60,000 nt of DNA, taken from positions 76,758,001 through 76,818,000 of the forward strand of contig OZ076409.1 in the NCBI GenBank assembly GCA_964187785.1, in the 5' to 3' direction. This document shows, piece after piece, positions 792 to 48,446 of this stretch. The translations under genes were made by a program, and so were the position numbers. The stretch's first letter is position 1, and each line of letters opens with the position of its first letter. The notes below the pieces were generated by a model that had not been told where the DNA came from, did not search any database, and saw only the letters and a list, made by a program, of their open reading frames with translations. This DNA comes from Amphiscolops sp. MND2022. Lineage: Eukaryota.

Positions 792-1192
792 TGTGATGCC
801 ATGATGCATGTCCTCAAAGACTCTATAAATTTGAAATACTCTGAACTCTTAACCAAACCAATTAGTAAATGTAATCTAATTTAGAAGCTAAGAAACTTCA
901 TTTAATAGATCCTGTATCAAGCTCCCCTGCTTCATCCTGTCGCTGTCACATTGTTAATTGATGTAACCTACCCTAGTTAATAGAATATATCTACTCGGAG
1001 AAATTGAGAATTCATCCTAGCAATCAGTCTTCCTCCCATACTTTAAGAACTGAGAACTCAGAAATAGATTGTACTCAGAACTAGCTAGCTACAAGATAAA
1101 AGATAAGACGACTTCGCTGTTAAAATCTTAGACTTCTTATGTCAGTACTAACACTTCTAAAAGAATCCACCACACAACTTTTTAACAGCTCA
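792..1192 (+). repeat. 5' LTR of element A
   Basis: TGTGATGCC...ACAGCTCA, 401 bp. I count 9 substitutions versus 18291-18691. Confidence 0.97.
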
Positions 1193-1194
1193 AT

Positions 1195-1208
1195 TGGTGC
1201 GACCATGA
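1195..1208 (+). promoter_or_regulatory. Primer binding site of element A
   Basis: TGGTGCGACCATGA begins 2 nt after the LTR end. Element B has TGGTGCGACTTG at the same position. The priming tRNA was not identified. Confidence 0.85.
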
Positions 1209-1339
1209 AAATTCTTTTTTCTCTCCCATTTATTTCACACATCTACAATTGTTGTACCTCTTTCCTCGACTTTCTCATACGCTATCTCTTTGTTCGACAC
1301 ACAGTTTCTCCACCTCTCAACATCGCCTATCGTTACTAA
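1205..1339 (+). CDS. Small leader ORF (44 aa) conserved between elements A and B
   Basis: SFLDFLIRYLFVRHTVSP aligns with DFLNFFNKYIIVRQTISP in ORF 37023-37343. Confidence 0.5.
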   Translation: MKILFSLPFISHIYNCCTSFLDFLIRYLFVRHTVSPPLNIAYRY

Positions 1340-1346
1340 CTTCAAC

Positions 1347-1620
1347 GTTGCAACCAATTTCTATTTGAAATTGGTCCGTGTTGCCATGGTTCTGACTGCG
1401 TTTCTCAACGTAATTCCTGTCAGTCATATTTCTTGGTTCTGACTACGTTTCTTGACGTAATTCCTGTCAGTAAATTTTTCGTTCCAACCACCACTGAGTG
1501 AATTCGTGTTGGCTTTTTCTCTTTCTTCCGTTCCAACCGCAGACGTGCGATACGTGTTGGCCCTTCTACAGTGCTATCCAGCGATACCTGCTAGTAGAAA
1601 TCTCTTTGGTTCTAGCCGCT
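1347..1620 (+). promoter_or_regulatory. Array of 6-7 bulged RNA hairpins in the 5' leader (putative packaging or protein-binding element)
   Basis: Repeated unit GTT-stem1-stem2-loop-stem2'-6-nt bulge-stem1', with different but complementary stems in each copy. Confidence 0.7.
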
Positions 1621-1875
1621 TGGATCAACTTTAAAGTTGGCACACATATTTAGCACATATTTTCTACATAACATTATTATAATACCTTTCTTATTCTCTC
1701 TTTTACAGTACAAACAGCATACAAAACTCTTTTAAAAACTAGTTTACGGATCCAAATACATAACAATTAAAATATATAACACATACCTCACATATTTCTT
1801 TATATAACTTTCATTTTTCATGACCGATATAAAACAAATTTTAATACAACCTCTTGGACACATTCTTCATTGTAC

Positions 1876-1998
1876 ATGCCGCCTTCAGTAGACACTATAG
1901 TTAAACTCATTGTCTGCTTTTGGTTCTTTGTTGCTATCATTGCTGGTCTTGCACTTTTTCTGGACAAATTTTTAATTTCATTCATACCAAAACTTTGA
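1876..1998 (+). CDS. Putative 40-aa single-pass membrane peptide
   Basis: Translates as MPPSVDTIVKLIVCFWFFVAIIAGLALFLDKFLISFIPKL. A polypyrimidine-CAG acceptor-like site precedes it at 1708. A positional counterpart lies at 38821-38934. Confidence 0.35.
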   Translation: MPPSVDTIVKLIVCFWFFVAIIAGLALFLDKFLISFIPKL

Positions 1999-2266
1999 AG
2001 CACAACCGTTTTCTTCTATGTTAACAAGTATAGTACTACCTCTTTTTGGACTACTTAGTATCTACCACACCTTCCATATACGTATTCAATATACACAAAA
2101 CCCATTCCTTCTTTTCATAAGTATTGTACTTACTATTTTCTTACAAGTGGTTTTCATAGATCAAATTTTACCATATAACTCACAATTCAATACAAAATAT
2201 CTTCTTTTCCGATACATCTATCCTTTATAGCAATCTTATTGTACTAATCAAACTTAATATCATATA

Positions 2267-5200
2267 ATGCTCCCCACTCCATTTACAGTCACTACTGACA
2301 AAAGACAAAATCGATCTCTTATACAAGATGTAACACCTTTTCTACAAAACATTATCTTTCAGTACACTAACCCACTTCCATTTGAAACAGAACCCCATAT
2401 ATTACATACTATTCCATTAGTACGAGAACATTGTGATTCTTATCTATATTATATACACTATAAAACACTTGACATTACACCATCACAAATCCCTTTTCAA
2501 GTTATTTTTAACCCTGTTAAAGGAATAAACTCTGGAACATTTTATAGAACTATACACCCAAAAAATATTACACTTTCTATACAAGATGTTTTTCACACAT
2601 ACATGCAAAAACTCATTGAATTCAATGAAAACCAAGACACACCACCTTATTGTCCTTCTCATTTACAAGAACTAAAACACAGATCTGAATATTTCGAGGT
2701 CCCAGATCTTGACACAAAAGTCCAACGACATGATAACCCTCATTATTGGTTACAACGAGATATCTTACAAATAAAACATTTTCAGTACAGATTCTTTACC
2801 AACATTATTCTTACAGATGACACTATACCTCAAGTCAAAATTTTTACACAATTCTTATTAAAGTTTCTTAGATTTAACTATCAACTAATATGGGAACAAA
2901 AAGATCAACAAGCCTATATTAACTTCCCTCAAATATTAACACATATAGAACTCTTACCATACATCATAAAAAATGAAAACAAACATTTACATTACCGAGA
3001 TCTTACTTCACTAAATGTTACACATTTTGAACAAATAACCTTAGATCACAACTTTGTACTTGAACATTCTGAAACATCAGACAAGAGACCTTTCACTACA
3101 CCTGATACTTCTCATGAAACAACTCCTGAAGAACAAACCTCTAGTGTTGAACCTTCATATACAAGACAACAATCAGACCAATCAGAACAAGAATCCCCAG
3201 AACAAGAAGCCCTTACTAATCGTTTTCAAAATCCTGATCTTCCTCAAGAACAACTATCATACCCACCATTATCACAAATCTCAGATATACAACAACCAAA
3301 TCCTTCTGAAACAAATACAATTCACAATACATCAGAACTTTCTGAAGAAACAGTACAAAATACACGAAGTTTTACAATAACCGATGATTCAAATCTTATA
3401 CTAGTTGCTACCCACAATATCACGCAAAATGAATTTACAAACCAAAATCAAGACAACACTTCAAATACAAATCCAGACAATACCTCTATTTTATCTACAT
3501 CTAATACTAACATTACACAACCCTCTCAGACACAAATAATATTTCCTCGAAATTACAATCCACCTTCTGTTCCACCCCAATTCTCAACTCAGATAAACAC
3601 CCATGACATTCCTCAACAAAGCTCATCAAATACACCCTACATTGCACAAAACAATAATATAGTTCATTTTCAAACACCAACTCCACCATTATCTTCTGAA
3701 ATACAAACTTCGAATTTTACTCCAGCTCAAACCAATTCGGTACATTATACACGAACTACCTTAAACATTAACACCATCCATTCTAACCCATCTACAGATT
3801 ATACCACTGCAAGACATCTTTCTCGACCTCCATTACAAACTATATTAACTAATCCATTATCATACAGTCTCACCAGTACTAATCCACGTCATACACAACA
3901 ATCTCAGATAAATTACAATACATCTCACCAATTAAATACTCTTTCTTCTCAACATACATCCAATACAATCACTCCTACATTACAAACTTCTCAATTTCAT
4001 ATACCAAATCCTCCTTCGACAACAATTAGAACTAACCCTCACTTTCATAGTACTTCAACTACTTCTTTACCTAATATTTCCAATAACCCCACATACAATA
4101 CAACACCTCCATCTACTATGTCTCATAACACTATGTCACACCCAACATATATTAATTCTTCTACTTCTATATCAGAACCCATTAAACCTTTTGATGGACT
4201 TGATCACAACTATACACCTGAAGAATATTTACAACATATTGAGGCACGTGTTACATTTTCCTTAGGTTTACAACCTACATCGGAACATGAATATAAATTT
4301 TGGCACGCCCGTCGCATGGCTTTTATACAATGCTCTCTAACAGGCACAGCACTAAGCTGGTACATCCGTTTAAACGACACTTATAAACATGATTGGCACG
4401 CTTTCGTACAAGCTTTCAAAAAACAATTTTCCTCACAAAAGAACGCTTACTATGCTCAAGTTGAAGCCCTTAATTTAACAAAGAAAGACAATGAAACAGT
4501 ACGTCATTTTGCACTCAAAGTTCAACAACTGGTTGAAAAAGGCTGGTGTAATGAGAATGCATCTACTATAAACCTTAAATGTAATGAAATCTTTACAAAA
4601 GGACTTCCAAAAAACCTTAAAGATTTTGCAAATAAAAGACAAGTAAAACACACCTCCACTGTCTTAGGACCTTCAATTCCTTTTCATACCTTGGTAAAAC
4701 TTGTTGACGCTGAAGATATTGCAAACGACAAAATCAGAACACACGATCTTGCACTTGAAATCAATAATATCACAAAACAATTGAACACTCAAACTCTAGA
4801 TCACCCATCTCAAGAACAACTTATGTATACACAACCCAAAGACCCAAATAACAAAAATAAACCTGCATATAAAAAATATTGCTCATACTGTCATAGAACA
4901 AATCACTTCATTTCTGCTTGTTTCAAAAAACAACGAGATGATGAAGATAAACGAGAAGCATATGCTCGATCAAAATCTCCACAAAAATCATTCGTTCAGT
5001 ACTTTCGTTCTCCTTCCAATGACAGAACAAAACACTATGATAATCGATACCGAAGTCGAAGTACTTCACGAGACAACTCTTATAACCAAAAATATTCACA
5101 AAACCGATACCGTTCTACATCTCGAGATAGAGACAGATTTCGTTATGACAAAAGTACTACTCCTCCACACTACTCCAGATCAAGATATGATACATACAAA

Positions 5201-5329
5201 CGTGATTCTCGATCTTACCGTTCTCCTTACAGATCTTCTTATAGATCCCCATATAGACAAAACTCTCGTCCTAGATACAGATCACGCTCCTATTCAAGAG
5301 ATAACAAATTCACCAAATACACAAATTGA
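2267..5329 (+). CDS. gag: Gag region of element A: unknown N-terminal domain, low-complexity linker, capsid, CCHC zinc knuckle, RS-rich tract
   Basis: Retrotransposon capsid-like IKPFDGLD...LTGTALSWY...W..FV..FKKQF; knuckle CSYCHRTNHFISAC. The TGA at 5327 is in frame with downstream pol and is probably a mutation. Confidence 0.9.
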   Translation: MLPTPFTVTTDKRQNRSLIQDVTPFLQNIIFQYTNPLPFETEPHILHTIPLVREHCDSYLYYIHYKTLDITPSQIPFQVIFNPVKGINSGTFYRTIHPKNITLSIQDVFHTYMQKLIEFNENQDTPPYCPSHLQELKHRSEYFEVPDLDTKVQRHDNPHYWLQRDILQIKHFQYRFFTNIILTDDTIPQVKIFTQFLLKFLRFNYQLIWEQKDQQAYINFPQILTHIELLPYIIKNENKHLHYRDLTSLNVTHFEQITLDHNFVLEHSETSDKRPFTTPDTSHETTPEEQTSSVEPSYTRQQSDQSEQESPEQEALTNRFQNPDLPQEQLSYPPLSQISDIQQPNPSETNTIHNTSELSEETVQNTRSFTITDDSNLILVATHNITQNEFTNQNQDNTSNTNPDNTSILSTSNTNITQPSQTQIIFPRNYNPPSVPPQFSTQINTHDIPQQSSSNTPYIAQNNNIVHFQTPTPPLSSEIQTSNFTPAQTNSVHYTRTTLNINTIHSNPSTDYTTARHLSRPPLQTILTNPLSYSLTSTNPRHTQQSQINYNTSHQLNTLSSQHTSNTITPTLQTSQFHIPNPPSTTIRTNPHFHSTSTTSLPNISNNPTYNTTPPSTMSHNTMSHPTYINSSTSISEPIKPFDGLDHNYTPEEYLQHIEARVTFSLGLQPTSEHEYKFWHARRMAFIQCSLTGTALSWYIRLNDTYKHDWHAFVQAFKKQFSSQKNAYYAQVEALNLTKKDNETVRHFALKVQQLVEKGWCNENASTINLKCNEIFTKGLPKNLKDFANKRQVKHTSTVLGPSIPFHTLVKLVDAEDIANDKIRTHDLALEINNITKQLNTQTLDHPSQEQLMYTQPKDPNNKNKPAYKKYCSYCHRTNHFISACFKKQRDDEDKREAYARSKSPQKSFVQYFRSPSNDRTKHYDNRYRSRSTSRDNSYNQKYSQNRYRSTSRDRDRFRYDKSTTPPHYSRSRYDTYKRDSRSYRSPYRSSYRSPYRQNSRPRYRSRSYSRDNKFTKYTN

Positions 5330-8300
5330 TATAGACCACCTTCAAGACCAAGAGATTCTAGATTTTCTAGATCTCGCCCACACTCAAATTCCAGAAATAA
5401 AATCAAAATGATACAACAACAAGACCAAACTGACCCTATCAAATTTGAAGTACACATGTATCACCCAACAGCAATGGCAAATGCTGTCACACCTACAAGT
5501 TGGTTTTATACTCTATATGTACACACCCCATCAAGTATAGTACAAAGAGACAACCCATCTAGATTAGAAATTGCATTCCTCCTAGATAGCGGTGCTTCCA
5601 TTTCTGTACTCAATTACCCAACATACATAACTCTTACAAAACTCCTAGATATTAGATCAAATCACACCTCTGATGTTGGACCAACTCGAAATTCCAAAAC
5701 ATTAACCATTGCAAACCAAACTGAAGTTCCTATTTTACACTACGCAAATATAATCTTGAACACCACTATTGATGAAAACTCTCGTTACTTTTCAGTACTC
5801 TTCGCAGTAGCTGATATCAAATACAACATCCTTGGCACACCATTCTTCGAAGACAATATACAAAACATAAACATACAAGACTTTACACTCGAATTTAAAC
5901 ACCAATCAAAAACACACCCAAATTATACAAAATTCACAACACTCCTATCTAAAGATTATCCATACTTCTCTTACATTTATAGAATTAACTCAAAAACTCA
6001 GATACGTCTAAAACCCAAATCTTCCAAAATTGCAAACTTTCCGATCAAAAATTATCATAACCTTCATTTTACAACCACACCACAAAACCACTTCTTTCCT
6101 TCAGTACCTCATACCTAATTTGCTACCAAATTCCGTACAAATTTCAATTTCATTGAAGTTTTTACAGACGACAAGCCAGATATATGTGCAACTATTATTC
6201 AGAACACTTCAAAACATATTGCAACCCTACCTATTGGACATATTGGATATATTGAAGTTCCAATTACTAATGAAAAACCTAAATTTTTCCAAGTTAACGA
6301 CATTAATACTTTAATACATAACGTTACCTATACTTATCATCCTGATATTACTGAACCACTTCCACAGACCAACTATATTGTACAATATGATGATCCTACA
6401 ACCCCTCCTCCTCAATTCTCTCTACATCAAATTTATATGACAAATAACGATATTCCAAATCAAACTTCTCCTTTATATAACGTTCAGCCTACTTCTCATA
6501 CTTCCGAAAAACGCATTTTCCCTTCTCTCCCATAAACTTCTGAAAATTTGAAATTTATTATTCAATTTAAGGTTTCAATTTGAAATTTGAAACCTCACAG
6601 ATTCAGAATACATTACTCTTTGCAATATGTTACTCAAATATAAAACATGTTATGCAACTCATAAAAACGATGTTGGAAAAATTTCAACACCCTTTCGTAT
6701 AAGACTTAAACCAAATGCTCAACTTATAACACAACGTCCTTCCAAAGTCCCTATTCACTACCGAGACAAACTTAACGTACTTCTCAAAGAACTCGGAAAA
6801 TATAACATTATCAAACAAATTGGTTCTTCTCCTCAAGACAAACCCGTTTATGGCACAACTTATTTAAATCCTCTTATTATAATCCCCAAGGAAGATACAA
6901 TAAAATGTGTATTAGACGCTCGACATCTTAACTCCAATACAGAACAATCTGATGAATCTTGGCCTATTGAACCTCTTGCTCCACAACTAGCACGCGCAAA
7001 TAAAAAGTACAAATCCGCTATTGACCTTATGTAAGCCTATGCACATACACCTCTTGACGAAGAAACTATAAAACTCACTAGTTTCTCCTCCGGAGACAAA
7101 CTTTTCGCATTTATCCGAGGCTTTTATGGTCTCAAAGCACTACCAAACTTCTTTACAAAACAAATGTCTACTTTCTTTAAAACTCTTATAGAACAAGGTT
7201 TCGCTCTTGTCTACATTGACGATATATTACTTTTATCTGATTCTAAAGAACACATGTTTCAACTCATAGAACAATTGCACATTATTAGTACAAAAAACAA
7301 TCTTAAACTAGCCCCTGAAAAATCCTTTTTCATGCTTCTTAAAGTCAAATTCCTTGGACATGAAATTGGTTACAATACAATTAAACCAATCCTTTCAAAA
7401 ACTGCAGCTATTCATAAGATCCCTTCTCCAACTGGCAAAGTTGCCCTAATGAGTTTCATTGGCGCACTCAATTTTTACACCAAATTTATTGAAAAACTAC
7501 ATATCAACCTCAAACCATTTTACGATCTTTTACATGAAAACACTCCTTGGAAATGGACAGACGAACACGAAAGTCTATTCCAAAAACTTAAAATGTCTCT
7601 CACTTCTGAAACAGAATTAACAATACCAAACACAAAACATCCATTTTTTATTACAGTTGACGCTTACCTTATCGGATTAGGCGCTGTCTTATTCCAATTA
7701 AATGAACAAAACAAAATGAAAGTCATATCATACAACTCTCGTATACTTAATCCACAAGAACAAAATTTCTCCACACTTGATAGAGAACTTCTTGGTATAA
7801 TACACGCACTTCAAATCTATGAATTTCTCATCATAGGTTCCCCCCATCCAATACACATTTTCACTGACCACAAACCTTTATTACATTGTTTTACAAAGAA
7901 AGGTAATCTCAGTCCTCGTTTCTATAGAGCTCAAATGCAACTGACAAAATTTTCAAAACTCAAAATAATTCACACGCCTGGAAAAAATCTCTCTGTTGCC
8001 GATATGTTGAGTCGCTCATTCACAAAAGCTGAAATACAACTAAACCAATTAAAACATAAACACCTCCCACCACAAATCGATTTTGCACTTTTACAAGATA
8101 ACACTCTTAAACCTGTACATTACTTAATAAAACATGAAGAAATTTTACCTCATCAAAAACATGACTCTCATCCAATTCTTGCTGGTTATGGTACAGATCA
8201 ATTCTCTATTCGTATCAATGATAAAGAAAATGACATTGTTGTCAAACCGTTACAATCCTTCTCATTCAAATCCATAACTCCTTTTCAAACTAAGTTCAAG

Positions 8301-10472
8301 ACACCTACCAAAAAGAACAACAAAACCCTTCATCAACCATCTCTCTTACTTAATGATACTGACGTTACAAGTGATGACGAAGATCATATTTACACCAGAA
8401 TTCCAAAATCTGACTCTTCCTTCTTACAAGACACAACATTACAAACAGAAAATTATTCTACTCTTAAGCAACCAACTCACAATACCTCACAAAAATCAGT
8501 TTCTGCAATAATTGTACAACCAAATTTACCATCTCTCACACACTGTCAACAAATCGTACCTTTTTATGATACATCAATTTTTAAGTACAAAAACTATTTT
8601 CAAGGTTTCTTCCTTCCCGATGATTACTCATTAGACATAAAAACTCTTCAACAACAACAATCTCAAGATCCGGTTCTTAGAACTGTTTATTCTTGGTTAC
8701 TAAATAATGAAAAACCCGAATTTGTAACACCTCTTATCACTGGTACTCCATTTCTACATGTATATTACAAAAGATTTTCACAACTTTTCATTGACGAATC
8801 CACAAATCTTATTAGTCTATATATTACAAACCCCACTGTTATTAACCAATCCTCTACTCCAAATTTTGTACAAGACACTATTCGTATATGCCTACCTTTC
8901 CGACTGTTTAAAACTGTCTTTAACAAACTCCATGAACACTCTCATACTGGTATGAAAATCACCTACAATACATTCAAACAATATTGCTATATCCCATTCC
9001 TTGAAAAATGGCTTTCCATTTTTATACATGATTGTATTGAATGTCAACGAAACAAACACTTTAATATGAAAATCCAAACTGCTCCCACACAATCTTTTTC
9101 AGAACATGCTCCATCTTTCAACTATCGAATTTCAATGGACACTAAAGGACCTATTAATCCTCCTTCTCGCAACAAATCCTATATACACGTGATAATTGAC
9201 GCTTTTAGTCACTTTGTTGTTACAGTACCCATCAAATCAAACAACGCAAAGACTGCTATCAAAACTCTCCTACACCATTGGATATTTAAATTTGGACCAC
9301 CCATATATCTTGTCACCGATCGTGGATCAGAATATGTTAATAAAGAAATGGCACACCTTTGCACACTTATGGGAATTCGTCATTCTCCTCGAACAGCTTA
9401 TTCTCCTTGGACAAACGGCCTTGTTGAAGTACAAAATAGAAATCTTGGTACCCATTTACGGATGTTCTTACATGACAAACCTAAAGATTGGGCATTCCAA
9501 GTCCATATGTACGCTTATGCACATAATTCACAACCACTTTCAGAACTCAACATTTCACCTCACGAAATTGTTTTCCACACTCGACCCAGAATACCCCTTA
9601 CATTTGATTTGAACCTTAACCGAGACACCTCTAAAACATGTATTTCACGATATTGCTCTCAACTTCCAGTACACTCCCATTATGATAAATCCGATTTAAA
9701 CCCATTTTTCTATAAAACACTTTCAAAACCCATTCCACATTGGTTTCTCGCTGTAGAAACTGCTATGTTACAAATTTATTCTACAGTACACGAAAACACT
9801 CTAAGAAAAATCAATTCACACGCATATATTACAAAAACTTACCATGAAGGTAAACCCCTTCCTATTGGTACCTTTGTTTTAAAACGCAATTTTACCCACG
9901 TTCACTTTTCTGACAAACTAAAACCCCTTCGGACTGGACCATATAAAATTCTTGACAGATTATCAGACGTCACATATGCACTACTTGCACAAGATGGCTC
10001 TACAGTACACGTCCACAGAAATCATTTAATTCCATATTATCCAAAAGAACCACTCTTATATCCACACCTGCGTAGTTTTATGCGCTTTTCAGACACAACT
10101 CAATTTCAAATTCCACAACCTACCAAATATGCAAACATTGATTCTTCTCCTTTTAACTCAGACGAATCGTTGTCAGAAGAAGATTCCCAAACATTTGTAA
10201 CACCATCATCATTTAGTACATCCAATCAGAATACACCATCTATAACATCCAATGACAATTCTTTGACCCCCTCAACCAATGACAACTCCTTATATAGACA
10301 TATAATTAATACCCCTCATACTATTATCTCTAGTGACAGATCAAGACACTCATCTAATAACCAAACCACTTCACTTCCTCCTCTAATTGACAGAACCACA
10401 AAAACTACCTATAAACTACGACAACAACCCAAATTAGATTATAGACTTTTCATTACACCTTCACAACTGTAA
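5330..10472 (+). pseudogene. pol: Pol of element A (aspartic protease, RT, RNase H, integrase), interrupted by stops at ~6116, ~6533, ~7032 and a frameshift at ~6560-6600
   Basis: PR FLLDSGAS; RT VLDARHLN and VYIDDILL; RH ITVDA.LIGLGAVL, RELL, FTDHKPL; IN HEHSHTG...CIEC, ISMD, VTDRG, NGLVE, and GPY module KLKPLRTGPYKI. Confidence 0.95.
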
Positions 10473-10558
10473 TCTAGTCATTCTATCTGTTGGCTCACTC
10501 AAAACTAGTCACTCCGGTTGAATGAAATATAACCCGTAACAAGTTATCTCAAAGATAA

Positions 10559-11796
10559 CCTGTTGAAAACACTTCAACAACCCTGGATCCTCCCTCTGAT
10601 ATATCTCCATCAGCTCCAAGTATTCCTTCCCCACCTGAATCTTCAGTATCTAGCACTACAAACTCTAGTAATGTAACTCCTACTACTCCTTCTAAAAGAC
10701 CAAGATCATACATCTCTGAAACTACCTCTTCCTCACTTCTTCACAGACCACCTATAACTGAAATTCCTATAAACACTCGTCCCCAACAAACTCCTATTAA
10801 CACTCCTATTATACACATACCAAACCCTGAAAGTGTTGAACAATACGTAACATACAAACATCCTACAGCTATCAAAACTGTTAGACTCCAACCTCAACTT
10901 AATCTTGTACAAATCCCTGATACTGAATATACAAAGCTACCTCCACTAAAATTACCTTCAGAACTTAGCACTACTCCTTCAAAACTTTATCCACCATTAA
11001 AACCTCTTCGAAAACCCTCTACATCACTCTCGAATCTCTTAGACAATAATACTTCAGACTACGCTCCATCACAAGACACAAGCTCACTTTTTGTACCTAA
11101 ACATAGATATAATCTTCGTGACCTTCACGTAGACTTAGTACAGACACTTCAACACTCAATTTTTCGACTCTTTCTAGCAATTCTGCATTACGACTTGTAC
11201 GACAACACGCTCAACCATTGTCCTCTGACACACCATCTTCAGAACTCTTTCAATCTCCTTGTTTTACTTCTGGTTTTGAAACCGCTTCAATACTCTCATC
11301 TAACCCACAGACTGCATTTCTATCAGAAGATCTCTTTCCACAAGTAGTAATCCCTACTCCTGTTCCTGCACATATTAGACTGCCCGAATACTATACTGCA
11401 GAACACTCTAGACCTCCAACTCCAAATTTTGCTGACTATCCACTTAGAGTCGATGGTATAACCATCTACGACCCACAAAACGATCCCCGATTTCCAATTC
11501 TTGCAGAACGTTTTATTAACAATAACGACCTCTTATCTCACAAACGCAAAGAAACAGAACTAAAACGCCTTCAGACATCAAATCTAGAACTTAAATTTGA
11601 AGTCAAAGTTATATTTCAAGGATTAAATCCACACACAATATTTCACGTTTCTAAGATAGAACATAAAACCTCTCCTGCTCCTTTCGAAGTAGTACATATT
11701 GAATTTGAACGCGATCTTAATATACCCACTATCACATATAGCAATATTGTCTTCTGTAACCCATATTCCGGTCTTAAATATACAACATCTTTTTAA
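10559..11796 (+). pseudogene. ORF-X: Pro/Ser/Thr-rich N-part with PSAP and LYPxL motifs plus conserved C-terminal domain (matrix/budding-like, unknown family); one frameshift near 11120
   Basis: An open frame from 10559 contains SPSAP (PSAP at 10607-10618), LYPPL (10985-10999) and RYNLR. The C-part (ORF 11218-11796) aligns with 47920-48444 (TSGFETAS, RFINN, LKFEV, NPYSGL.Y). Start codon not identified. Confidence 0.75.
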
Positions 11797-14446
11797 ACCC
11801 TATACAACCTTTTACATAACAACTCTAATTCTTTATTTACATTTATTTAACTCTACCTCTTCCATACCCATAACACCCTCTGACACTGACAACTATCTTC
11901 CATCGGATGACCCGAATATTACAAATCTCATGGTTTCTCATTATGACTGTGCAAAACAACACAATCTGAGACAATTTAATTTACTCAATGTAAAACAATG
12001 CACTGAAGCTCCTTCCGACATTAAACATGCAAGTGTTAAAGCCCGTGTATATGTCCGAGCAAAAGCTAAACGCATCAAAGCTTTTAAATGTGTTGCTTAT
12101 GCAAAAAAAGAAAGAAAAATATGCTTTCAAGGTTCCGTAAAACACCGTCGTGTTGATAGAACCGTATGGAATCATAATACATTACCGCTCCCTGTTACTC
12201 TTGATCCAGCAGAATGTAAAAACATTATACGACATTAAAATGGTACAAATAATAAAATACTGAATAACCTTCAATACAACAAAACCTTTACACTCTTAGA
12301 AGACCATTATTTTCAAGAACGTTTAGAACAATATCAAACTCCTTTCACTGTATATCAACTGAACAAAATGTATACAGGTACATTTACATTTATGCCTGCT
12401 GATAAAAACTGGATATATGACCCTACAAAAAACCCTTACCATAACTGTCCTGCTCATCATCAATTCGAAGTCAACTTAGTTAGTTGGCTACTAGAAGTTT
12501 CTGAAGTAGAACTTACATATGATGACACATCAAATGACATGATAATTGATGGACATACATTACCCTGCTATTTTGCAGATGGCTTCTGTAAACCCACTAC
12601 AAAAACTCCTTTTACTCTTGTTCGGTTTAATGATGATTATTGTCTAATTTTTACCCTACAAGACTTTATTGGACGTATGACTAAAATTGAAGATAGATAT
12701 TGGATTGAAACAGACTCTTTTGTACATTCTCCACATCCAATAAAATCTAAAACAGCTTCTGGCATAAAAGGTACAGAACACCCCTATGTTTATGCTCCTC
12801 ATACACAACACCCAAATAATCCAAGTCTTTCAAGGTTTGAAGTTTTCCCTACAGCACAAACCTTCTGTGGTAAACCAGACCCTCTTTATTCTACACAATA
12901 ATCAGACCTTTTTGTTACATACACTGATGGTTTCAATATGCATACAGGACAACCTAATCCTCATTCCATAATTGATGAATATATTTCTGGTAAAATAGTA
13001 TTGGACACTTCAAATAACAAATTTGTATTTCCTGCATTAAATGTATCAAACAATTTTGCTACCATTGATTATGATGCACATGTAAACACCAAAATCGATT
13101 ATACTATTAATCATGTCTTCCGATCAATGACAGTACAAGAACTAAATACTCTTCATACAATATGTGAACTAGAACGAAATCAACTCCTTACAATACTCGC
13201 AATGTCAGTACAAAACCCTCAACTTGCTGGTTTCCTTTTAACTGGTAATAGAAGTAACTTCTTATACGTTGAAGGCTCAACCGCCTGGCTTTATGACTGT
13301 CCTCATTTTTTATCTCCTTTATACAAAGCAGATAGATGCTTTGACCGTATACCCATACATTTTAAAGAAACCTTAATGTACGTTGATCCTATTACAAGAC
13401 AAACTTATGATTATGCTACACCAATTACATGCGATAATAATCCACGTAACATTATTGAACTAGATCTTGATTCAGACGATCAAGACTTTTACATTCTTGG
13501 ACCTGAACCTATCAAACGCAAACCTCCACTAATGTTTACACCCTCACAAATCAAAACTACAATACGCCCTAATACTTTTACAGCCCAAGATGCTGGTATA
13601 TATTCAAATGCAGAACTTGATCAATTTTGGAACCGTATTTTATTTTCTAAACATTCTGATTCTACACTCCAATTACTAGGCAAAGCTCTTAGTTATTCCT
13701 TCATTTCATCTAATACTCCAAATTACGATGCAGATTCCCCTCAAGATTCTGGTAATCCTTACAATACATTACGCATAGGACTCCATGATAAACTCTTGAA
13801 TTTAACTCCTCTTTTTACACCTACATGGTTTTCAGATGCTTTTATTGCACTTTTTGGATACCCTTGTTACATTCTCACACAATGTGGTATATACTTTTCT
13901 ACATTTCTTTTCGTACAAGCTACTCTTACACTCATTAAAAAACTGTACAAAACAATATCTATTAAATATAATCTCAAAAATAATATTACTTTACTTAGTT
14001 CTATAGCACATGGTTTTTTTAATGTTCTTACAGCACGAATGGTCAGTGACCTCCATGAGACTCAAAACAAAAAACCCAAAAGTACACTTTTAAAATCCAA
14101 ATCCTTAGATAATTTTATTGACACTTCTCCAAATTTAATTAACCATTCTACCGATGTTACTTCCCCTCCACCTTTCTATACTAAACGACCTAACAAAATT
14201 CAATTTCCTAAATTTAACTTCTTTCCGAAACGACACCACAATTCTCACCATAAAACGACTCCACTTCCTTTCTCTCCTGTTCAACATCCTACACTTCCTA
14301 ATTATACTCATAAAAACTTTCACTCGAATGACAATCTAACTACTCAACATGACACTTTAATTAACAATCCTGTCACTTCTACTACGGATACACCAATTAA
14401 AATTTATTCGCGGATAAACTATCCTTTTCCTCCTCCATCTTCTTGA
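11792..14446 (+). pseudogene. env: Envelope glycoprotein, class III fusion-protein-like (chuvirus G / herpes gB type), two premature stops
   Basis: ORFs 11699, 12368 and 12938 share one frame. Signal-like hydrophobic stretch, HYDC...NLLNVKQC, CELER.QL..ILAM...NP.LAG, CFDRIPI...YVDPITR...C, N-glycosylation sequons, C-terminal TM (ILTQCGIYFSTFLFVQATLTLI), long tail. Confidence 0.85.
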
Positions 14447-14705
14447 ACACTCTCTCAGTTTTTCTGTAACTCTCTTTCAGTACACTTGCCTACTATTTCT
14501 TCACAATTGCTACTCCTCCACCACTCGAAACTCTTGCAGAAGTTCATCTTCCTCAGCCCAATAATACTTTAATAATAACCGTCTTTAAAAACTCTCAACT
14601 AAAGTTGACAAATCCACTCGTTAGTGTAATTTATAGTACTTTAACTTTAAAGTGCTAAGGCCTCTTGGAATAGATAACACTGTGATTGTTGATGTTTTTA
14701 AAACA

Positions 14706-16033
14706 ATGACACAAGCACAAATTGACCTACAAACACAGCTTGAACAAGCAACCCCAACAGAACTAATAACTAGACCTCTTTCAAATGATTCTCCTGTTCT
14801 CTATATTGAGACTTCAGAACAAACACCTCCAACTTTTCTTGAACCAATGGAACACACAAAAGTTGAAAATGAAAATCCAAAACCTACTCCTTCACAAGAT
14901 GATACTGATCATACACAATCGACACCACCTCCTCCCAAAAAACGATATGAAATAATGAAAGATCCAATCTTTCTTTCATCACCAATATATCCTCCTTCAA
15001 TACCTTCAAAAATTTCACTTTGCACGAATCGCGATGATCATTTGATCTCAATTCTTTCTACTGACGATTTCGTCTTCAAAGCACAACTAACTTCTCTATA
15101 TATGCATCCTACTGACTATTCATTTCGCTTATATGACAAAAATCAAGACTTCTTCACATCCATTGCTTCCAAAATAATGGGTCCATACCAATATTGGCTC
15201 GAGAATGGAGTTAAAATTTTCTCTCTCCAATTCAATTTTCTTCGACCTTCTATATACGATCTCAAAACAGATGAATCTGATCCATCCTTTCTCTCTATAG
15301 CACAAAAAGCTACTCATCATCAGACATATACTAAATTCCTGCAATACACGAAACCACAAAATCATATTTTTGTCAATTACAAATATACATCACCGTTCAC
15401 AATGACAAATATGTACACTCTGGACCACTCCTGTATAACAGGCTACCTTCGGAACTATGACCCTATAAAACAATACTTCTGTTTACTCCCATATAACAAT
15501 ACTTCACGTCCACCTATTGTACCTCAAGAATATCTCATACATTACAATGATTTTTTGTTGCCCTGCAACATTCCTACTCAAATTGCAAAACCTCTTACTG
15601 TTATTAAACACCTCGTTTCTTCTCCACTTGACGATAAAGATAGAACGTACTATACAGTTTCTACAAGCAAACGTATTCATACAATGAATTCCTCTTTATC
15701 TCTGCCAAAACTATCTCTTTCATGGTACAAGCTGAACAAAAAACTGAACATAAATCACACGCTTCACCTATAAAAAACGCTCCTCACAAACTTTCTTCTG
15801 TATTAAACAACCGAACACTTCGCGACATAACAAATTTACTTGAACCCTATAAACGAAACTCCTCTTAAACACCTATCACAACACTCACACCTATACTACA
15901 CTGCTACGACAGAACACACAAACTCCTTCAGACACTCGATTTAGACTCTCAACGCATCACTCAATCATCCCAAGCAATCCAATCTGCTTTGGAAACTATA
16001 ACTACTCTTTTTAACTCAACTAATCTTCATTAA
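14706..16033 (+). pseudogene. ORF4: conserved accessory protein of unknown function (frameshift ~15670, stop ~15866)
   Basis: Aligns with 51038-52310 (LTS.YM.PT.Y.F, TSIASK, LRNYDP.KQ.F, RP.IVPQEYLI, YSY.E..FIS). Confidence 0.75.
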
Positions 16034-16451
16034 AATCTTCTACAGGTAATATAAAGTTCTTAATTTTTCTTCTATGGTACACCCTATGATACATCTGTGA
16101 CACATCCTTCAAGGTATTTTCATTTTTACCTACTTATTTAAGGTAAATTCTTGCTTTTGAATAAAATCTCAGGACTATTTTTCAAGTACACTAATTTTTC
16201 CTACAGTACATGTCGTAAAATTAACTATTTCTATTAAAAACACTACAATACAAGACATACAAGACAATATAGCACAACACTACATATGATACATTAAAGC
16301 ACCCAATTTTGTTGTACATCTTTGACTTGATATTGTCATTCTTCTTACACTTCCTTTGTTTTAGAAACATCCATTCTTCTTCCTCCTCCTTCCATTCTCT
16401 TTCAGAACATCTCCACTTCTCCTTTTTCGTCTTCTACAGGACTCTCTCGTC

Positions 16452-16904
16452 ATGGCCCCCAACGCTGAAATACAAGATATAATTACAATGATTTCCAGCC
16501 ACTCAAAAGTTGATAGCCTAAAAGCAGCTATTTTTCACACAATGGCCTACAAACTTTCCCTGGAAATAAACAACAATAAAATAACGCCAAAATCTCTTAT
16601 CGCCTTTCTGAAAGTCTTATATAATGTCACCCAAATCAAAAAGAAACACATTACATTTGAACAATATTCAAGGATTCATGTCGCCGGACCAAAAATTGCC
16701 ATTCGTGAAACGGCTTCTAATGTCGTTTTTGTGTTAAACTCGGCGTTCACGTCTAAAGACCAATACTTTCAAGCTGCCTTCCACGAAGCCACCAACGCAT
16801 TCAACGAGATGCTTCATAGTTTTGGATATACCCAGAAACTCGAACACTATGATCCTCACCAACATCAGGCACATCCACCTCAACAACATCCTCTATACAA
16901 CTAA
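16452..16904 (+). CDS. ORF5: 150-aa accessory protein of unknown function
   Basis: Intact ATG ORF in good context (GTCATGG) directly after a polypyrimidine tract plus CAG (16437-16439). Weak similarity ITFEQYSRIH to INFDQYLKLH at ~53030 in element B. Confidence 0.55.
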   Translation: MAPNAEIQDIITMISSHSKVDSLKAAIFHTMAYKLSLEINNNKITPKSLIAFLKVLYNVTQIKKKHITFEQYSRIHVAGPKIAIRETASNVVFVLNSAFTSKDQYFQAAFHEATNAFNEMLHSFGYTQKLEHYDPHQHQAHPPQQHPLYN

Positions 16905-17110
16905 AACAATATTCTACTTACTTTATCACTCTTCAACTCCATCTCTTCTTGAATCCGTCATTCTTCCTCAATGATGTTTGAGATGTAGCTGTCGCTCACT
17001 CCTTCAAAGAACTCCTACACATGCTGAAACTCTTCAATTCACCCATTCACGATGGTCAACAACATACATCTCCATTTTGGGTTCATCGACGTTGCCAAAC
17101 TTTGTCCTCG

Positions 17111-17225
17111 TCACTGGTCTTCACACTCCACGATGACTTCTTGACTGGTCTTCACACTTCAAATGCTGACTTCTTGACTGGTCTTCACACTTCAACTGCT
17201 GACTTCTTGACTGGTCTTCATACTC
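17111..17225 (+). repeat. 33-bp tandem repeat (~3.5 copies) in the 3' region of element A
   Basis: GACTTCTTGACTGGTCTTCACACTTCAACTGCT repeated. Confidence 0.9.
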
Positions 17226-18290
17226 CAATGGCCAATACAAATTTCAAACTGAACTGTATAATCAAATTTAACAAATATACCTTGTAACTCCTTGTAACCT
17301 ATCAAATTCTAACTTCCATATAGTATAGTGCTATATACTCTTATCTAATCTTTAGTGCTATATACTCTTATTTAATCTTAATCTCCTCTAATCGTAGTAT
17401 AATTACCCCTCCATTAAAAATAATCCTTCCCAAATTCTACCTATAATTATCCTTGTAACCACAATAGTATCTACTTCCATTGTATTGTGTATAGTACATT
17501 GACATTATCTTACCTAATTATAAACTCCAAAAATAAATCTCTAATCCCCATCTTTTACAGAACACAAGTCCTACCTACAGTACAAGAAATTTTCTAAGAT
17601 TTTTGAACAAAAATTTTTCTTTAACAAAACATGTTCTACACTTTTGTTTTAATCCCCAAAAGCATTCCCAAACAATTTTCCAAATTTTTCTTTAAAACTC
17701 TTAACAACTGTCACTTCTAGTTTTCCAATGTTTGAAACTTGAAATAGCCAAAGTTTTTTTCAACTCTTGCTTCTGCTCTACTATTCACTTTTGTTGAAAA
17801 TGAACTCTCACTCGAACCTTGACTTTTCGAAACTTCTTCACTTTTGGTTCACATACCCGCCAATGTTGGTTCACAACTCATTGACAACTTCACGCTTTAA
17901 TTCTTCAACTTGAAAAGTTTTCAATGCTGACTAACTCATGTTGATGAAGAATTTTTTCAAACAAGCCGATGGCTGATACGAAAAAGAAACATGAAATGAT
18001 AAATAGTTGTCAACAATAACTTCAAAGAACTTGTCAGTCAAAGAAACTGAAAGAACTTGAACCTTGCTTGAACCTTTTTGCACCAATTGAATCGTCTATG
18101 ACGTAATGACGTAAGAAGTCAAATCGTTTTAGGTTGTTCTCACTCCTTAAGTATGGTACTCTACAAAACAAAACTCATGCAACTCTAGTACAACACAAAT
18201 GAAACAAACCCATGCATATAACAAAAACTTCTAGAACTCCTCGAACCCAAACTGCATATATGTAATTTAATTTTTAAATTCCCGGTTGAT

Positions 18291-18691
18291 TGTGATGCCA
18301 TGATGCATGTCCTCAAAGATTCTATAAATTTGAAATACTCTGAACTCCTAACCAAACCAATTAGTAAATGTAATCTAATTTAGAATCTAAGAAACTTCAT
18401 TTAATAGATCCTGTATCAAGCTCCCCTGCTTCATCCTGTTGCTGTCACATTGTTAATTGATGTAATCTACCCTAGTTAATAGAATATATCTACTCGGAGA
18501 AATTGAGAATTCATCCTAGCAACCAGTCTTCCTCCCATACTTCAAGAACTGAGATCTCAGAAATAGATTGTACTCAGAACTAGCTAGCTACAAGATAAAA
18601 GATAAGACGACTTCGCTGTTAAAATCTTAGACTTCTTATGTCAGTACTAACACTTCTAAAAGAAACCACCACACAACTTTTTAACAGCTCA
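18291..18691 (+). repeat. 3' LTR of element A
   Basis: Direct repeat of 792-1192, followed by TSD TTCA. Confidence 0.97.
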
Positions 18692-36704: not shown

Positions 36705-36982
36705 TGTACTGACCTACATTAATAACCAATAGTATTTAGATGTTCGTAGAATGTTCTAGAATGTACATTTATTTATTTTTGAATGACTGTAAAACTCTTC
36801 TCCTTCAGAGAGAGAAAACTAATAACCAGTATTTGGTCGACTTCCTTTTTGCTCTACTTCTACCATCTCATAGCTAGCTAGCCAGACCTCGACGCAGCCT
36901 TTCTTAGTAAGCCTTTAAGTAGCCACCTCCACCTTTCAATAAAATAAAAGGCAAACACCCAACAACTATTTATGGCAGCACA
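36705..36982 (+). repeat. 5' LTR of element B
   Basis: TGTACT...GGCAGCACA, 278 bp; about 10 substitutions plus 1 indel versus 54030-54308; AATAAA near the 3' end. Confidence 0.97.
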
Positions 36983-36985
36983 ATT

Positions 36986-36998
36986 TGGTGCGACTTGT
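36986..36998 (+). promoter_or_regulatory. Primer binding site of element B
   Basis: TGGTGCGACTTGT begins 3 nt after the LTR end. Confidence 0.85.
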
Positions 36999-37022
36999 AA
37001 AAATTTTTCTTTTCACAACTGA

Positions 37023-37343
37023 ATGCTTTCTCTTCTCTCAACAATAATACAACTACCACTCCTCATTTTTGAAATTCTTTGGGATTGCAGTGAAAATTTT
37101 CTGAATTTCCTTGAAGACTTGACCTGTGACTTTCTGAATTTCTTCAATAAATACATCATTGTTCGACAAACAATTTCTCCAATACAAACATCACTTGAAA
37201 TATACCAAATTTCTTCACCGCCGGTTTATCACGTTCTCCAACATGTTGACACGGTTCTTCTTCTTCTGCTTCTCTTGCCTTGCCGGTTTATCACGTTTTC
37301 TAACACGTTGACACGGTTCTTCTTCAGACTGAATTATCCGTAG
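37023..37343 (+). CDS. Leader ORF homologous to 1205-1339
   Basis: Shared FL(D/N)F..(R/K)Y..VR.T(V/I)SP motif; the 3' half overlaps the hairpin array. Confidence 0.45.
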   Translation: MLSLLSTIIQLPLLIFEILWDCSENFLNFLEDLTCDFLNFFNKYIIVRQTISPIQTSLEIYQISSPPVYHVLQHVDTVLLLLLLLPCRFITFSNTLTRFFFRLNYP

Positions 37344-37546
37344 TGACACAGTTCTGCTTCTCTCTTCAGACTGATTTATCCTCAGTGACACAGTTCTGCT
37401 CTCTATACCGATTTATCACAGCTATCCGGAAGCTCGTTGACACAGTGATTCCTTTCTCTTTGTCTGGTTTATCAAGAACATCTAACACCTTTGACACAGC
37501 AAATTTTGTCTGGTTTATCAAGGTTTTCTAACACCTTTGACACAAC
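37218..37546 (+). promoter_or_regulatory. Array of 7 internal-loop RNA hairpins in the 5' leader
   Basis: Unit (CCG/CTG)-RWTTA-TC(A)...(T)GA-CA-(CGG/CAG) repeated with variable apical stems. Confidence 0.7.
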
Positions 37547-38820
37547 AATCTTCTTCAATCCTGCTATCTTGAACGTCAGGTGGACTCCTGATGTATTAGT
37601 TGACTGAGTGCATGTCAGACTCCGCTCACCTATAAGCACATACGTTTCAAGATCAACTTCGTGTTGGCAGAAAACCTGAATTTTCTATTTTTACGTTTTG
37701 GATCCATTTTCTACAAAAATCTTATATAACTTAGCTTTCAGAATTAGACTCTGAAATTCAAAACAACGAACCAAGAAACTCAATCAAATCAACCAAGTTT
37801 TATCCTACTTCATTTTCCATTATGTCGTCGACAACGATACAAAAATTTTCCACATAAAAATATAAACATTTCCAACACACTCTATCGTTTTAAAAATTAT
37901 TAACAACACAATTTCAACTCTTTCCCTAATTTCAACTCATTTACACTTTACAAAACATTTATTTTAACAAAAACACACATATAAATTGAACGCTCTTCTT
38001 TTGCCCTAAAATCTAAAATAAGGCATGCAAATAAAACACACACTGTAAAGGTAGTTTTCTACTTTCAGGCACCCACAATTCCTATTCCCTCCCGTAAGAC
38101 TTAGACAATCAGACAGCTTTAATAGCTATATCTGATTCTAAGACTGACGAAAACCTTAGTTAAGTTTAAACGTCAGTAAGGAGAACCTAGAGGACACCGA
38201 ACTACGTTCGAATGTTCGAAATTTTCAAGAAATAAAAGTAAAAGTAAAAGGTACAAAGATCAAAACTTTGATCTTGATCAGTATTGATCAGACTTTGGAT
38301 AGTGGACGTTGATTGTTCAGAGTTCCGTTCCCTTAGTCTTAAAACACACAAACTCCTTAAAATTAAAACACTTGTAGCCTTTCTGGATGTGACAGTAACC
38401 TTATGTTAGACACTTTACAGTAATCCAAACTTAAAATCACAATTAGTTTCTTTTAGCAATCCTTTGAGGTTGAATACAGATTCTACTGCATCCGCTTCTT
38501 TTCTCTATCCCAAAACATACAAATAATTTAAACAACTTCAAATCCACTCTATATTATACAATAAATGAATTCAAACACACACCACCAAAAATCAGATAAT
38601 ACATTTTTTATACTCCTATAACATCTGCTTCTCTACCCTCAATTATAAACCAAATTAACTCCCTTCAAAACCCCACCACTGAAAATTTTGAAAGCATAAT
38701 CCAACAATTTCAACAATATATTTCCCACATTATAGAACAACAAAGATTTTATCCAAGATCTCCAACTTGAAATTTTTCACATCAAACTTCACTTTAAACA
38801 TTGAACCTTCACATCATAAT

Positions 38821-38934
38821 ATGTGGGAAAAAGTTACCACAGTAGTATTCATCACCACATACACATTTTGTGTTTTATTTATAGTTTGCATCCCGTTAGA
38901 AAAGATACTTACCACAATCCGAGATACCATCTAG
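38821..38934 (+). CDS. Putative 37-aa membrane peptide immediately upstream of gag
   Basis: MWEKVTTVVFITTYTFCVLFIVCIPLEKILTTIRDTI; the stop is 1 nt before the gag ATG. Confidence 0.35.
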   Translation: MWEKVTTVVFITTYTFCVLFIVCIPLEKILTTIRDTI

Positions 38935-38935
38935 A

Positions 38936-41900
38936 ATGAATCTCTCAACAGCTCCCCTTTCCCCCTTCCAAATACCTTACTTTAAAAATGCAAAGGTAGT
39001 AAAACGTGAAATAACACCATTCTTACAAAATATTATATACAATTACACACAACCACTCTCATTTGAAAATGAGTCTTTTACAATTGAAACAATTCCTCTT
39101 ATTAGAGGACACTTAGATACCAATCTTTTCTGTATTAGATATAGAAATACAACTATTCCTACAGAATACCCAACTTTTCAAATTTCCTTTCCTCAACAAG
39201 GATCCTATTCGCATCAAATATATAGAAGAACAATAAACCCAATAAACCTTCTAACTCCTATAAAAGAAGTTTTCCAAACCTTTCTAAATCACGTAAAAGA
39301 ACACAATTTAACAAATGAAACCCCAAAATTCAGTCCAAATGCACTTGAAGAACTTGATCAACATGTAGGTAACTTCGAAGTAGAAGTTATAGAAAGACTA
39401 GTTGATCCTCAAAACAATCCCCATCTTTGGTTACAAGCCGATACCTTAGGTATACAAAACTTCCTATATCATTATTTCAAAGACCTTACATTGAATAACC
39501 AAACAATACCTCAAGTTCAAGTAATCTCTTTATTCCTTCGAAAATATTTCCGATTCAACTATCAACTATTATGGTCACCACAAGTTCAACCTGCTTTCAC
39601 AGCATTTTCAACTTATTTTACACCAGATGAATGTTTACCATTGATCATAAGTGAACAAAATGACCATCCCTACTTCTTTAGACTAGATTCAATTATACAA
39701 CATAATATCGACCGTATAAACCATGATCCTCATTTGATAACGAACAATAACTTACTTGATGTTAATAGACCTTATCACTACCAACGAAACACTCCAGTTC
39801 AACAAGATCTACTTATCAACTTTGACAAAAATGATAGAGATAATGAAACAAATAATGCAGACCTACTTCAACAACAAGGAGTTAATAATGAAAATATACC
39901 TCAACAACAACATGAAAATGAAAAGTATAACGAAGACAATCAATTAAACGAAAACAATACAAGTGAGTATAATACTCAAGAATCTACAACTTCTGCACAA
40001 AATGCATCACAAGCTGGAACATCGACAAATACCCAATCTTTCAGAATTCCAACTAGAAGTGTTAGTCCAAGACAAAATACACTTCATCCTCAATCTAATT
40101 TAGACATATTTCAAAACCGAAATATTACTTTTAATTTTCCACCTCACCCAGATGAAACCACACAAAATGAAATTCAATGTACAATACAAGAAGATACTCA
40201 ACATATAAATTCTATCCGTAATACCTCTGTCAATGTTTCATCACCTACAAGAACTACTTTTATTAATCCAAGATACATGACTCGATCAAGATATGATCCT
40301 CCATCAATTCCTTCTGCTTTTCAATCAAACAGATCAATTCAATTAAACGATAATCACAATGATAATCAACCTACTTCTAGTCGTTACTATGATCCTTTTA
40401 ATTATTCCTTTTTTCCATCGTCAGATACAAATACTAATGCAAATAATAATCCAAATTTTTCTCAACCAAATCTTAACTTAAGAACACAAAACCCACTTAC
40501 AAATACACAACCATTAACTTTTTCAAGAAATGAATTTAATTCTCAAAGTCAAGCAACCTCTTATACAACTTCTTACTCACATACAACACAACCTTTTCAA
40601 AGGAGACATCAAAATCCTCCACTCACACATATACCTGCTGATCCTTTATATCAAATAAATCAAAATATAAATCATAACCCTAGTACAAATCAACTACCAA
40701 TAAATACCATGCAACCTGTAACTCTTCCACACACACAATCTGTAACTACTCCACTCCAATATATACCAGTACAACATGATACAGAATATGTCTGCCTCAA
40801 TACCAGAACCTATGAAACCTTTTGACGGTTTAGATCATTCCTATACCCCAGAGGAATACTTACAGCAAGTTGAAGCAAGATTCACCTTCGCCATAGGTGA
40901 AGAACCTCTGAATAATCCTATCAAATATAGATCTTGGCATAATAGACGCATGGCATATATACAATGTTCTTTAACTGGAACCGCCCTTGATTGGTATACA
41001 AACCTCCATATATCATATAAACAACAATGGAATTCATTTGTACAACTATTCAAGAAACAATTTTCATCTCAAAAAACAGCTTACGACGTACAAGTAGAAG
41101 CTATGTCACTCATGAAAAAAGACAACGAAACAGTACGTCACTTTGCACTTAGAGTACAACAACTAGTTAATAAGGGATGGTGCAATGAAAATGCAGCCAC
41201 CATAAACCTCAAAAACATAGAAAATTTTCAAAAAAGGACTACCTAAAAAAACTAAAAGACTTTGCTCACAAAAGACAAGTTAAACATGTATCAACGCTAC
41301 TTGAACCATCAATACATTTCCATACACTTGTTCGACATGTTGATTCCGAAGACATCGCTAATGAAAAAATACCAACAAATGATTTAGCTTTAGAAATGAC
41401 CACTTGAAGTATCACTTGAAGATGAAACAAATACCAAAGTATTAGAACACGAAGAACATATAATGGTTACCCAATCGGGAGACCCAATTAACAAAAGCAA
41501 ACCAGCTTATAAAAAATATTGTTCATACTGTCATAAAAACAATCAAACAATCATAGTATTTCAAATTGTTATCAAAAACAACGTGATGATGAATACCAAA
41601 GATATCAAAACCAAAGATCAAGAATTCCTCAACTATCTTTTGTACAATACTTTCGTAATAAACCCAATACTTCACAAGAAACTCGAAATGAAAACACAAA
41701 TACTTACTCTTCTAATGACAATGATCGTAGTAAATATAACCAAAATTGTTACAATGATAAATACAGAAATAACGATAGATATCGCAGTAACAGTAGAGAT
41801 TATTCCCAAAATAGTCATAGATCTAACTCTCGACAGAGATATTACAATAGCTCTCGAAGTCCATATAGATCTCGATACGAAAATTATTACAAACGAAGAA

Positions 41901-48444: not shown

Positions 48445-48446
48445 CG

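Follow-up and report, generated by a model that had tools for sequence, protein, structure and literature searches.

ORF4, a gene located directly after env in LTR retroelements of Amphiscolops sp. MND2022, represents a new accessory-protein family, carried by an element of an already known type. It is a genuine gene of the element, and in the lineage that spreads, purifying selection acts on it. As for its role, the balance tips slightly towards a nuclear regulator of its own element's expression, acting either by activation of transcription or by RNA export.

Gene order of the host elements

The window, i.e. the whole stretch of DNA that was analysed, is 60,000 nucleotides long (assembly GCA_964187785.1, contig OZ076409.1, positions 76,758,001 to 76,818,000 of the forward strand). 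It contains two elements, A and B, both of which are env-carrying Ty3/gypsy LTR retroelements, roughly 17.7 kb in length (17.9 kb for A). Their main features are the following:

792..18691, + strand: element A, a Ty3/gypsy-type LTR retroelement
2267..10472, + strand: gag-pro-pol of element A (Retrotrans_gag, RT, RNase H, integrase), disrupted by stops in the window copy
10559..11796, + strand: extra Ser/Pro-rich ORF in the pol-env interval, in two frames in the window copy
11693..14446, + strand: env of element A (Monjiviricetes_fusion, PF24664, E 5e-21), with two stops in the window copy
14706..16033, + strand: ORF4 of element A, whose open sister copies have 442 codons; the window copy is broken
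16455..16904, + strand: ORF5, 149-150 aa, no family; the copy of lineage A3 is 59% identical
36705..54308, + strand: element B, with the gene order of A, 96% identity between its LTRs and a target-site duplication of 4 bp
51038..52310, + strand: ORF4 homolog in element B, whose open sister copies have 430 codons; the window copy is broken

The LTRs of element A (792-1192 and 18291-18691) are 401 bp long each and 97.8% identical. The element is flanked by a 4-bp target-site duplication and has a primer-binding site downstream of the 5' LTR. Gag, RT, RNase H and integrase were matched by Pfam in Ty3/gypsy order, and the protease was called from an Asp-Ser-Gly motif, without a Pfam match. Downstream of pol, env is of the herpes-gB/Monjiviricetes fusion glycoprotein type, which is matched by PF24664 in element B as well (E 3e-14). 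ORF4 is not the sole extra gene, as one more ORF is found in the pol-env interval, and ORF5 lies downstream. The order LTR, gag-pol, extra ORF, env, ORF4, another ORF, LTR is common to five further elements of the genome; together with A and B, seven elements from five lineages, 16-18 kb in size, were mapped.

Several other parts of these elements deserve mention. The start of Gag (window 2267-3100) forms a conserved domain of ~280 aa that has no Pfam match and lies far 5' of the capsid domain. The extra ORF between pol and env (10559-11796) is a single frame of 413-453 aa in three other elements; it belongs to no Pfam family, its N-terminus is Ser/Pro-rich, and its C-terminal part is 37-69% identical across lineages. 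ORF5 is kept in A, A3 and A4, and the ORFs found at the same place in B, C and D were not linked to it by tblastn. Tandem arrays are located 3' of ORF5 (33 nt x 3.6 in A, window 17113-17228; 25 nt x 7.4 in A3, loci L119 and L120). A 137-nt inverted repeat (84%) abuts the 3' LTR of A (window 18692-19138) and is probably a separate small DNA element.

Env-carrying Ty3/gypsy elements with an HSV/gB-type env are known as 'ancient errantiviruses' (PMC13524379). The passages of that paper that describe them agree with the elements presented here in the LTRs, the gag-pol-env organisation, the PR-RT-RH-IN order, the PF24664 env and the many near-identical copies; the present elements add the pol-env ORF, ORF4 and ORF5. 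A term search of the text of the same paper returned no accessory ORF 3' of env. LTR elements with extra ORFs 3' of env are, however, already on record, and foamy-like fish elements reach 17 kb through their accessory ORFs, according to another source (PMC6431247); the arrangement seen here is thus not new in itself.

ORF4 is a selected gene of the element

The original prediction described a conserved protein of ~440 aa at 14706..16033. The gene, 442 codons long and placed directly after env, is there, but its window copy is not intact: the frame shifts near 15657, and an in-frame stop follows at 15866-15868. The window copy in element B is likewise broken by frameshifts and one deletion. Sister copies of ORF4 have open frames of 430-510 aa, and the homology between A and B that had been read from the window holds between natural open copies (39.5% identity over 425 aligned positions, E 1e-99). 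All of the motifs singled out earlier (FLRPS.YDL.T.E.D, HH..Y.KFLQY, TSPFT, G.LRNYDP.KQ.F and RP.IVPQEYLI) were found and are kept across lineages.

ORF4 follows env in seven of the seven mapped elements, i.e. in all five lineages. Among 30 loci chosen by similarity to ORF4, a choice that favours intact copies, 24 have an ATG frame of at least 441 aa. To avoid selecting on ORF4, 30 loci were chosen by similarity to the env tail. ORF4 is next to env in every one of them, over more than 900 nt in 29 and over 192 nt in one, and it is open across ~410 codons in eight of the 29 covered loci and broken in the other 21. A genome search with ORF4 gave 7213 candidate places, a figure not equal to copy number; 150 of them were scored and all are 98-100% identical. 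In loci L009 and L039 and in protein P0447, env-ORF4 tandem duplications or ORF4-env fusions are seen, of which template switching is the probable source.

Selection was estimated from 45 open frames. In six moderately diverged subfamily pairs dN/dS is 0.10-0.16 overall, 0.03-0.08 across residues 161-290 and 0.18-0.44 in the N-terminus; deep-lineage estimates were set aside because synonymous sites are saturated there. Variants were also compared among the env-selected copies. Those private to one copy (84 synonymous, 171 non-synonymous) have a dN/dS of 0.64, and variants common to several copies (37 synonymous, 10 non-synonymous) have a dN/dS of 0.08 (Fisher p 7e-9). This contrast indicates that copies decay once inserted, whereas the lineage that spreads preserves the protein.

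These data bear on the notion that ORF4 is a passenger, a captured fragment of a host gene that is functionless in the element. Both window copies and 21 of the 29 env-selected copies are broken, as such a passenger would be, but the breaks and private changes resemble post-insertion decay and the shared changes are mostly synonymous. Furthermore, ORF4 co-diverges with gag, pro and env, and the matches listed include no named host homolog. A host-gene fragment free of purifying selection is what would have spoken against the original prediction; the dN/dS values and the variant test show constraint instead, so the selection half of that objection fails. They largely refute the passenger reading, which we regard as highly improbable. 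Selection, the position after env and the searches described below, which returned no family, together bear out the proposal of an accessory gene outside recognised families.

Descent and database searches

Other ORF4 lineages, A3/A4, C and D, were found in the same genome. Identity to the ORF4 of lineage A is 80% for A3, 49% for B, 44% for C and 39% for D, and capsid, protease and env rank in the same order, which implies that ORF4 is old in this clade and was inherited vertically. Four further proteins, P0139, P0269, P0220 and P0448, have best matches in the genome that are just 35-50% identical, and they probably come from other assemblies. P0448 (a cluster of 7 members) is the most distant relative. 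It is 600 aa long and consists of the ORF4 core with extra inserts; its core is acidic and the long C-terminal helix is absent.

A search of 1.84 billion representatives produced 452 matches, of which the best 150 came without names, and the listed database matches with a source shown are all unnamed ENA proteins. No named host homolog is among the matches listed, and a single host ancestor could hide behind thousands of element copies. Relatives in viral contigs, metagenome contigs or phages were not confirmed. ORF4 was also compared with the element's other ORFs and with the C-terminus of integrase, and origin as a duplicate of one of them found no support (best profile probability 6.4%, helix against capsid).

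Pfam and NCBIfam gave no significant family for ORF4, and profile searches found neither an RNA-binding nor a catalytic family in it. The sole matches among PDB sequences are designed coiled coils. The ESM Atlas returned no match, a blank that speaks for neither novelty nor absence. The PHROG family phrog_19870 matched 6 of 65 ORF4 members (best E 1.7e-4). Identity as a sulfatase on this basis was rejected, as members of that family have CxPxR and ORF4 is without it (hhalign probability 0.1). Literature searches in openly available sources, a scope outside which subscription journals, Repbase/Dfam and bioRxiv supplements fall, brought up no account of the ORF4 family.

Protein anatomy

The anatomy was derived from 15 seed proteins, which are partly non-independent and 14 of which are full-length. 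In the coordinates of element A, the protein is divided as follows:

14706..14936, + strand: N-terminus (residues 1-77), acidic, Ser/Thr/Pro-rich and fast-evolving, no confident structure
14937..14945, + strand: basic cluster (residues 78-80), candidate nuclear localisation signal
14946..15383, + strand: conserved region (residues 81-226) with 14 of the 26 invariant residues, pLDDT mostly below 50
15384..15551, + strand: predicted SH3-like small beta-barrel (residues 227-282), five strands, local pLDDT 53-67
15591..15747, + strand: three predicted helices (residues 296-347); the window copy has its frameshift here
15874..16023, + strand: C-terminal long helix (residues 390-439) with a heptad pattern, candidate coiled coil

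The N-terminus varies from 49 to 216 residues across the seeds, is 25-49% Ser/Thr/Pro and is net acidic in all 14 full-length proteins. In 11 of these 14 the basic cluster sits where the N-terminus ends or close by, and three lack it. Residues 79-348 have a pI of 7.8-9.5 in 14 of the 15 seeds, and the 26 invariant residues of the core include many polar ones (His, Lys, Arg, Asn, Asp, Gln, Glu). No conserved Cys is present among the columns common to at least 13 of the 15 seeds. The absence of a transmembrane segment, noted earlier for the window copy, extends to all 15 proteins (maximum 19-residue hydropathy 0.56-1.61), and no signal segment was found in the seeds. The C-terminus had been called helical, in agreement with the long helix predicted in the full-length model. 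Hydrophobic positions 408/411, 418, 425/429 and 432/436 make a heptad pattern over residues 408-436 in an analysis that left out three seeds without the helix. Confidence in the predicted coiled coil, as in the predicted barrel, is low to moderate.

Predicted fold of the core

An SH3-like barrel was suspected from the ORF4 sequence ahead of modelling. The full-length model (mean pLDDT 39) is usable for the C-terminal helix alone, and generic helices are its sole matches in the fold search. The core model, built from 65 sequences, has a pLDDT of 50.5 and a pTM of 0.36. Its best Foldseek rows are the Tudor domains of PHF19 and PHF1 (E 0.08-0.35) and NusG/Spt5 KOW, none of them at E <=0.001, the threshold at which the viral fold library (BFVD) also yielded no match. 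VIA-align puts YfhH and R67 DHFR at the top (Z 6.4), followed by Hpy99I and Spt5 KOW (6.2), with Tudor, chromo and PWWP rows within one Z unit of the best, all on a low-confidence model. The superpositions cover ~50-56 residues of the barrel with an rmsd of 1.3-2.5 A, Z of 5.5-6.5 and 2-16% identity; overall, the KOW, Tudor, PWWP and R67 folds are tied over Z 5-6.5. Sm/LSm folds are absent from the fold rows listed. Because these matches are tied at Z below 7 and include an enzyme, R67 DHFR, the model points to a generic SH3-like barrel at most and does not name a function. The structure prediction and Foldseek search proposed along with the original prediction thus gave a low-confidence barrel and no family name. 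Any likeness to Spt5/NusG KOW, PHF1/PHF19 Tudor, PWWP and R67 DHFR would be confined to the predicted barrel, and the rest of ORF4 matches none of them. KOW and NGN profiles gave no Pfam match, and when ORF4 was compared by hhalign with shallow profiles of E. coli-type NusG and of seven KOW frames from the host, the probability was at most 0.2.

The leading Tudor rows, and the succession of a barrel and helices that is reminiscent of PWWP, suggest a chromatin reader, or an anti-silencing factor that would shield copies from heterochromatin in the manner of VANC. VANC proteins are anti-silencing proteins of plant VANDAL DNA transposons that act on DNA methylation (PMC5735166); within what this source says of them, they are, like ORF4, accessory proteins encoded by a transposon whose non-coding DNA contains tandem repeats. 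Leader tandem repeats of 42-58 nt, which were called in four of the seven elements and are lineage-specific, resemble VANC targets as that source gives them. However, no homology to VANC was found, VANC comes from plant DNA transposons, and the element copies carry no methylation footprint: among private changes, 13 C/G transitions fall on 116 CpG sites (0.112 per site) and 142 on 1065 other C/G sites (0.133), so no excess of CpG hypermutation is seen. Pfam Tudor, PWWP and chromo families matched none of the 43 + 13 ORF4 proteins. The presumed Tudor cage positions, placed on the weak model by hand, are occupied by variable or non-aromatic residues, which leans against a conserved aromatic cage. 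A chromatin reader is quite unlikely, and of the anti-silencing role proposed earlier, the version that involves DNA methylation is disfavoured by the lack of CpG hypermutation.

Non-coding DNA around ORF4

Directly 5' of ORF4 there is a short block of unusual conservation:

14667..14700, + strand: 34-nt block, candidate cis-element or short exon

It is 30-32/34 identical among lineages A, A3 and B despite saturated synonymous sites, occurs once per element and is absent from the LTRs; it was not found in C or D. The env-ORF4 gap (window ~14503-14625) further holds an ATG-less segment of ~40 codons, whose frame and stop position are kept in 69 of 72 A-group loci, some of which overlap. Changes in this segment are conservative, and its peptide resembles the one that results from translating through the 34-nt block; it may be a short spliced exon. 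In B-type copies (window 50842-51037), a donor-like site lies ~30 nt past the conserved block and an acceptor-like site right before the ORF4 start. They would delimit a putative intron of ~130 nt 5' of ORF4, which is absent from A. Contigs of run X1 contain no joints and one extends beyond the 3' LTR, so they have no bearing on splicing.

These features bring to mind a post-transcriptional factor akin to Rev or CERV, in which ORF4 would oligomerise on unspliced element RNA and export it from the nucleus. At least five ORFs on one strand imply subgenomic RNAs, and several downstream genes together with splice signals in the element would require such a factor. The GT...AG pair that recurs in B-lineage copies, from the conserved block to the ORF4 start, and the basic core and heptad helix of the protein would suit it as well, and binding to nascent RNA would also account for selection in cis. 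The precedent is CERV of the C. elegans element Cer1, a nuclear protein with a predicted coiled-coil linker that is required for genomic RNA export (PMC10309623). As portrayed in sections of that paper, CERV (517 aa) is comparable to ORF4 in size, in its host, an invertebrate LTR retrotransposon, in having no outside homologs, and in its helical oligomerisation part and basic cluster. The same sections describe CERV as spliced from gag-frame exons and as having two domains, one a Cys-rich ring and the other G-protein-like. Unlike CERV, ORF4 is a separate ORF after env, has a predicted SH3-like barrel and none of CERV's conserved cysteines. Moreover, ORF4 has no known RNA-binding family, Rfam matched no RNA element, the acidic tail is left unexplained, and the splicing itself is predicted from sequence. 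We consider RNA export, taken by itself, rather unlikely, but it ranks closely after the activator reading given below.

ORF4 had also been proposed as a ligand for hairpins in the leader. The leaders and LTRs of the main lineages have short matches only and are nearly unalignable, whereas the polar residues of the core are invariant. The proposal has no direct support, and a conserved partner fits better than a lineage-specific site. Such a partner might be a host protein or ligand. ORF4 would then counteract host defence, work as a small enzyme, or serve in the virion as an accessory that aids passage of the enveloped particle to the germ line. Many polar residues invariant across lineages with unalignable non-coding DNA, and the constant adjacency to env, are consistent with this idea; an SH3-like barrel can also be an oligomeric enzyme, as R67 DHFR, tied for the top match, illustrates. 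On the other hand, there is no catalytic family (the match to the sulfatase profile is spurious) and no signal or transmembrane segment, and the core is strongly constrained, where an arms race would predict rapid change. A host target of this kind is unlikely.

A putative activator of element transcription

The single reading that we favour, tentatively, is that ORF4 is a nuclear and probably oligomeric activator of its own element's transcription. An acidic tail, a basic cluster, a basic core with a small barrel and a heptad helix are the usual layout of a transcription activator. The transactivator idea put forward originally fits this anatomy, and the Spt5/NusG KOW and Tudor matches of the predicted barrel and the precedent of Tas count in its favour. 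The foamy virus Tas/Bel1 gene, like ORF4, is an accessory gene located after env. The Tas protein is a nuclear transactivator of the acidic class that acts on an internal promoter (PMC517496); it resembles ORF4 in being soluble and in having an acidic region and a candidate cis-element just 5' of its gene. The acidic region is C-terminal in Tas and N-terminal in ORF4. Tas belongs to Retroviridae and ORF4 to Ty3/gypsy, and no Tas/Bel1 homolog is among the Pfam, PDB or BFVD matches listed for ORF4.

As an activator, ORF4 would be made from a subgenomic RNA, either spliced or internally started, and its basic cluster would mediate entry into the nucleus. The heptad helix may allow oligomerisation, and the basic core and barrel may contact the DNA of the provirus, its nascent RNA or a conserved part of the host's transcription machinery. 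Recruitment of co-activators would then fall to the acidic tail rich in Ser/Thr/Pro, and more of the 17-kb transcript would be made.

Several points count against an activator. The models are weak and the barrel matches are tied among unrelated folds. Acidic tails of low complexity occur widely and are not a diagnostic trait, the basic cluster is missing from three seeds, and P0448 has an acidic core and no long helix. Nearly unalignable LTRs and leaders, set against 26 invariant core residues, are a poor fit to a lineage-specific DNA binder. A freely diffusing activator should, furthermore, complement defective copies, so strong selection on ORF4 demands either cis-preference or a bottleneck. 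A bolder version is improbable to a still greater degree. In it, an invertebrate Ty3/gypsy lineage would independently have become similar to complex retroviruses, with a KOW-like elongation factor that is loaded onto RNA polymerase II and takes transcription across a 17-kb provirus, as well as more accessory ORFs and short spliced exons.

Significance

Accessory regulators in invertebrate LTR retrotransposons have rarely been characterised, and CERV is the sole one that we found. ORF4 adds a large family without known relatives, which five or more lineages have kept in a genome of 1 Gb with thousands of matching candidate places. Through it, the way in which giant elements with an env express their long RNA and spread becomes open to experiment. 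If its barrel engages polymerase or chromatin, ORF4 would represent a type of regulator that is new among those encoded by such elements.
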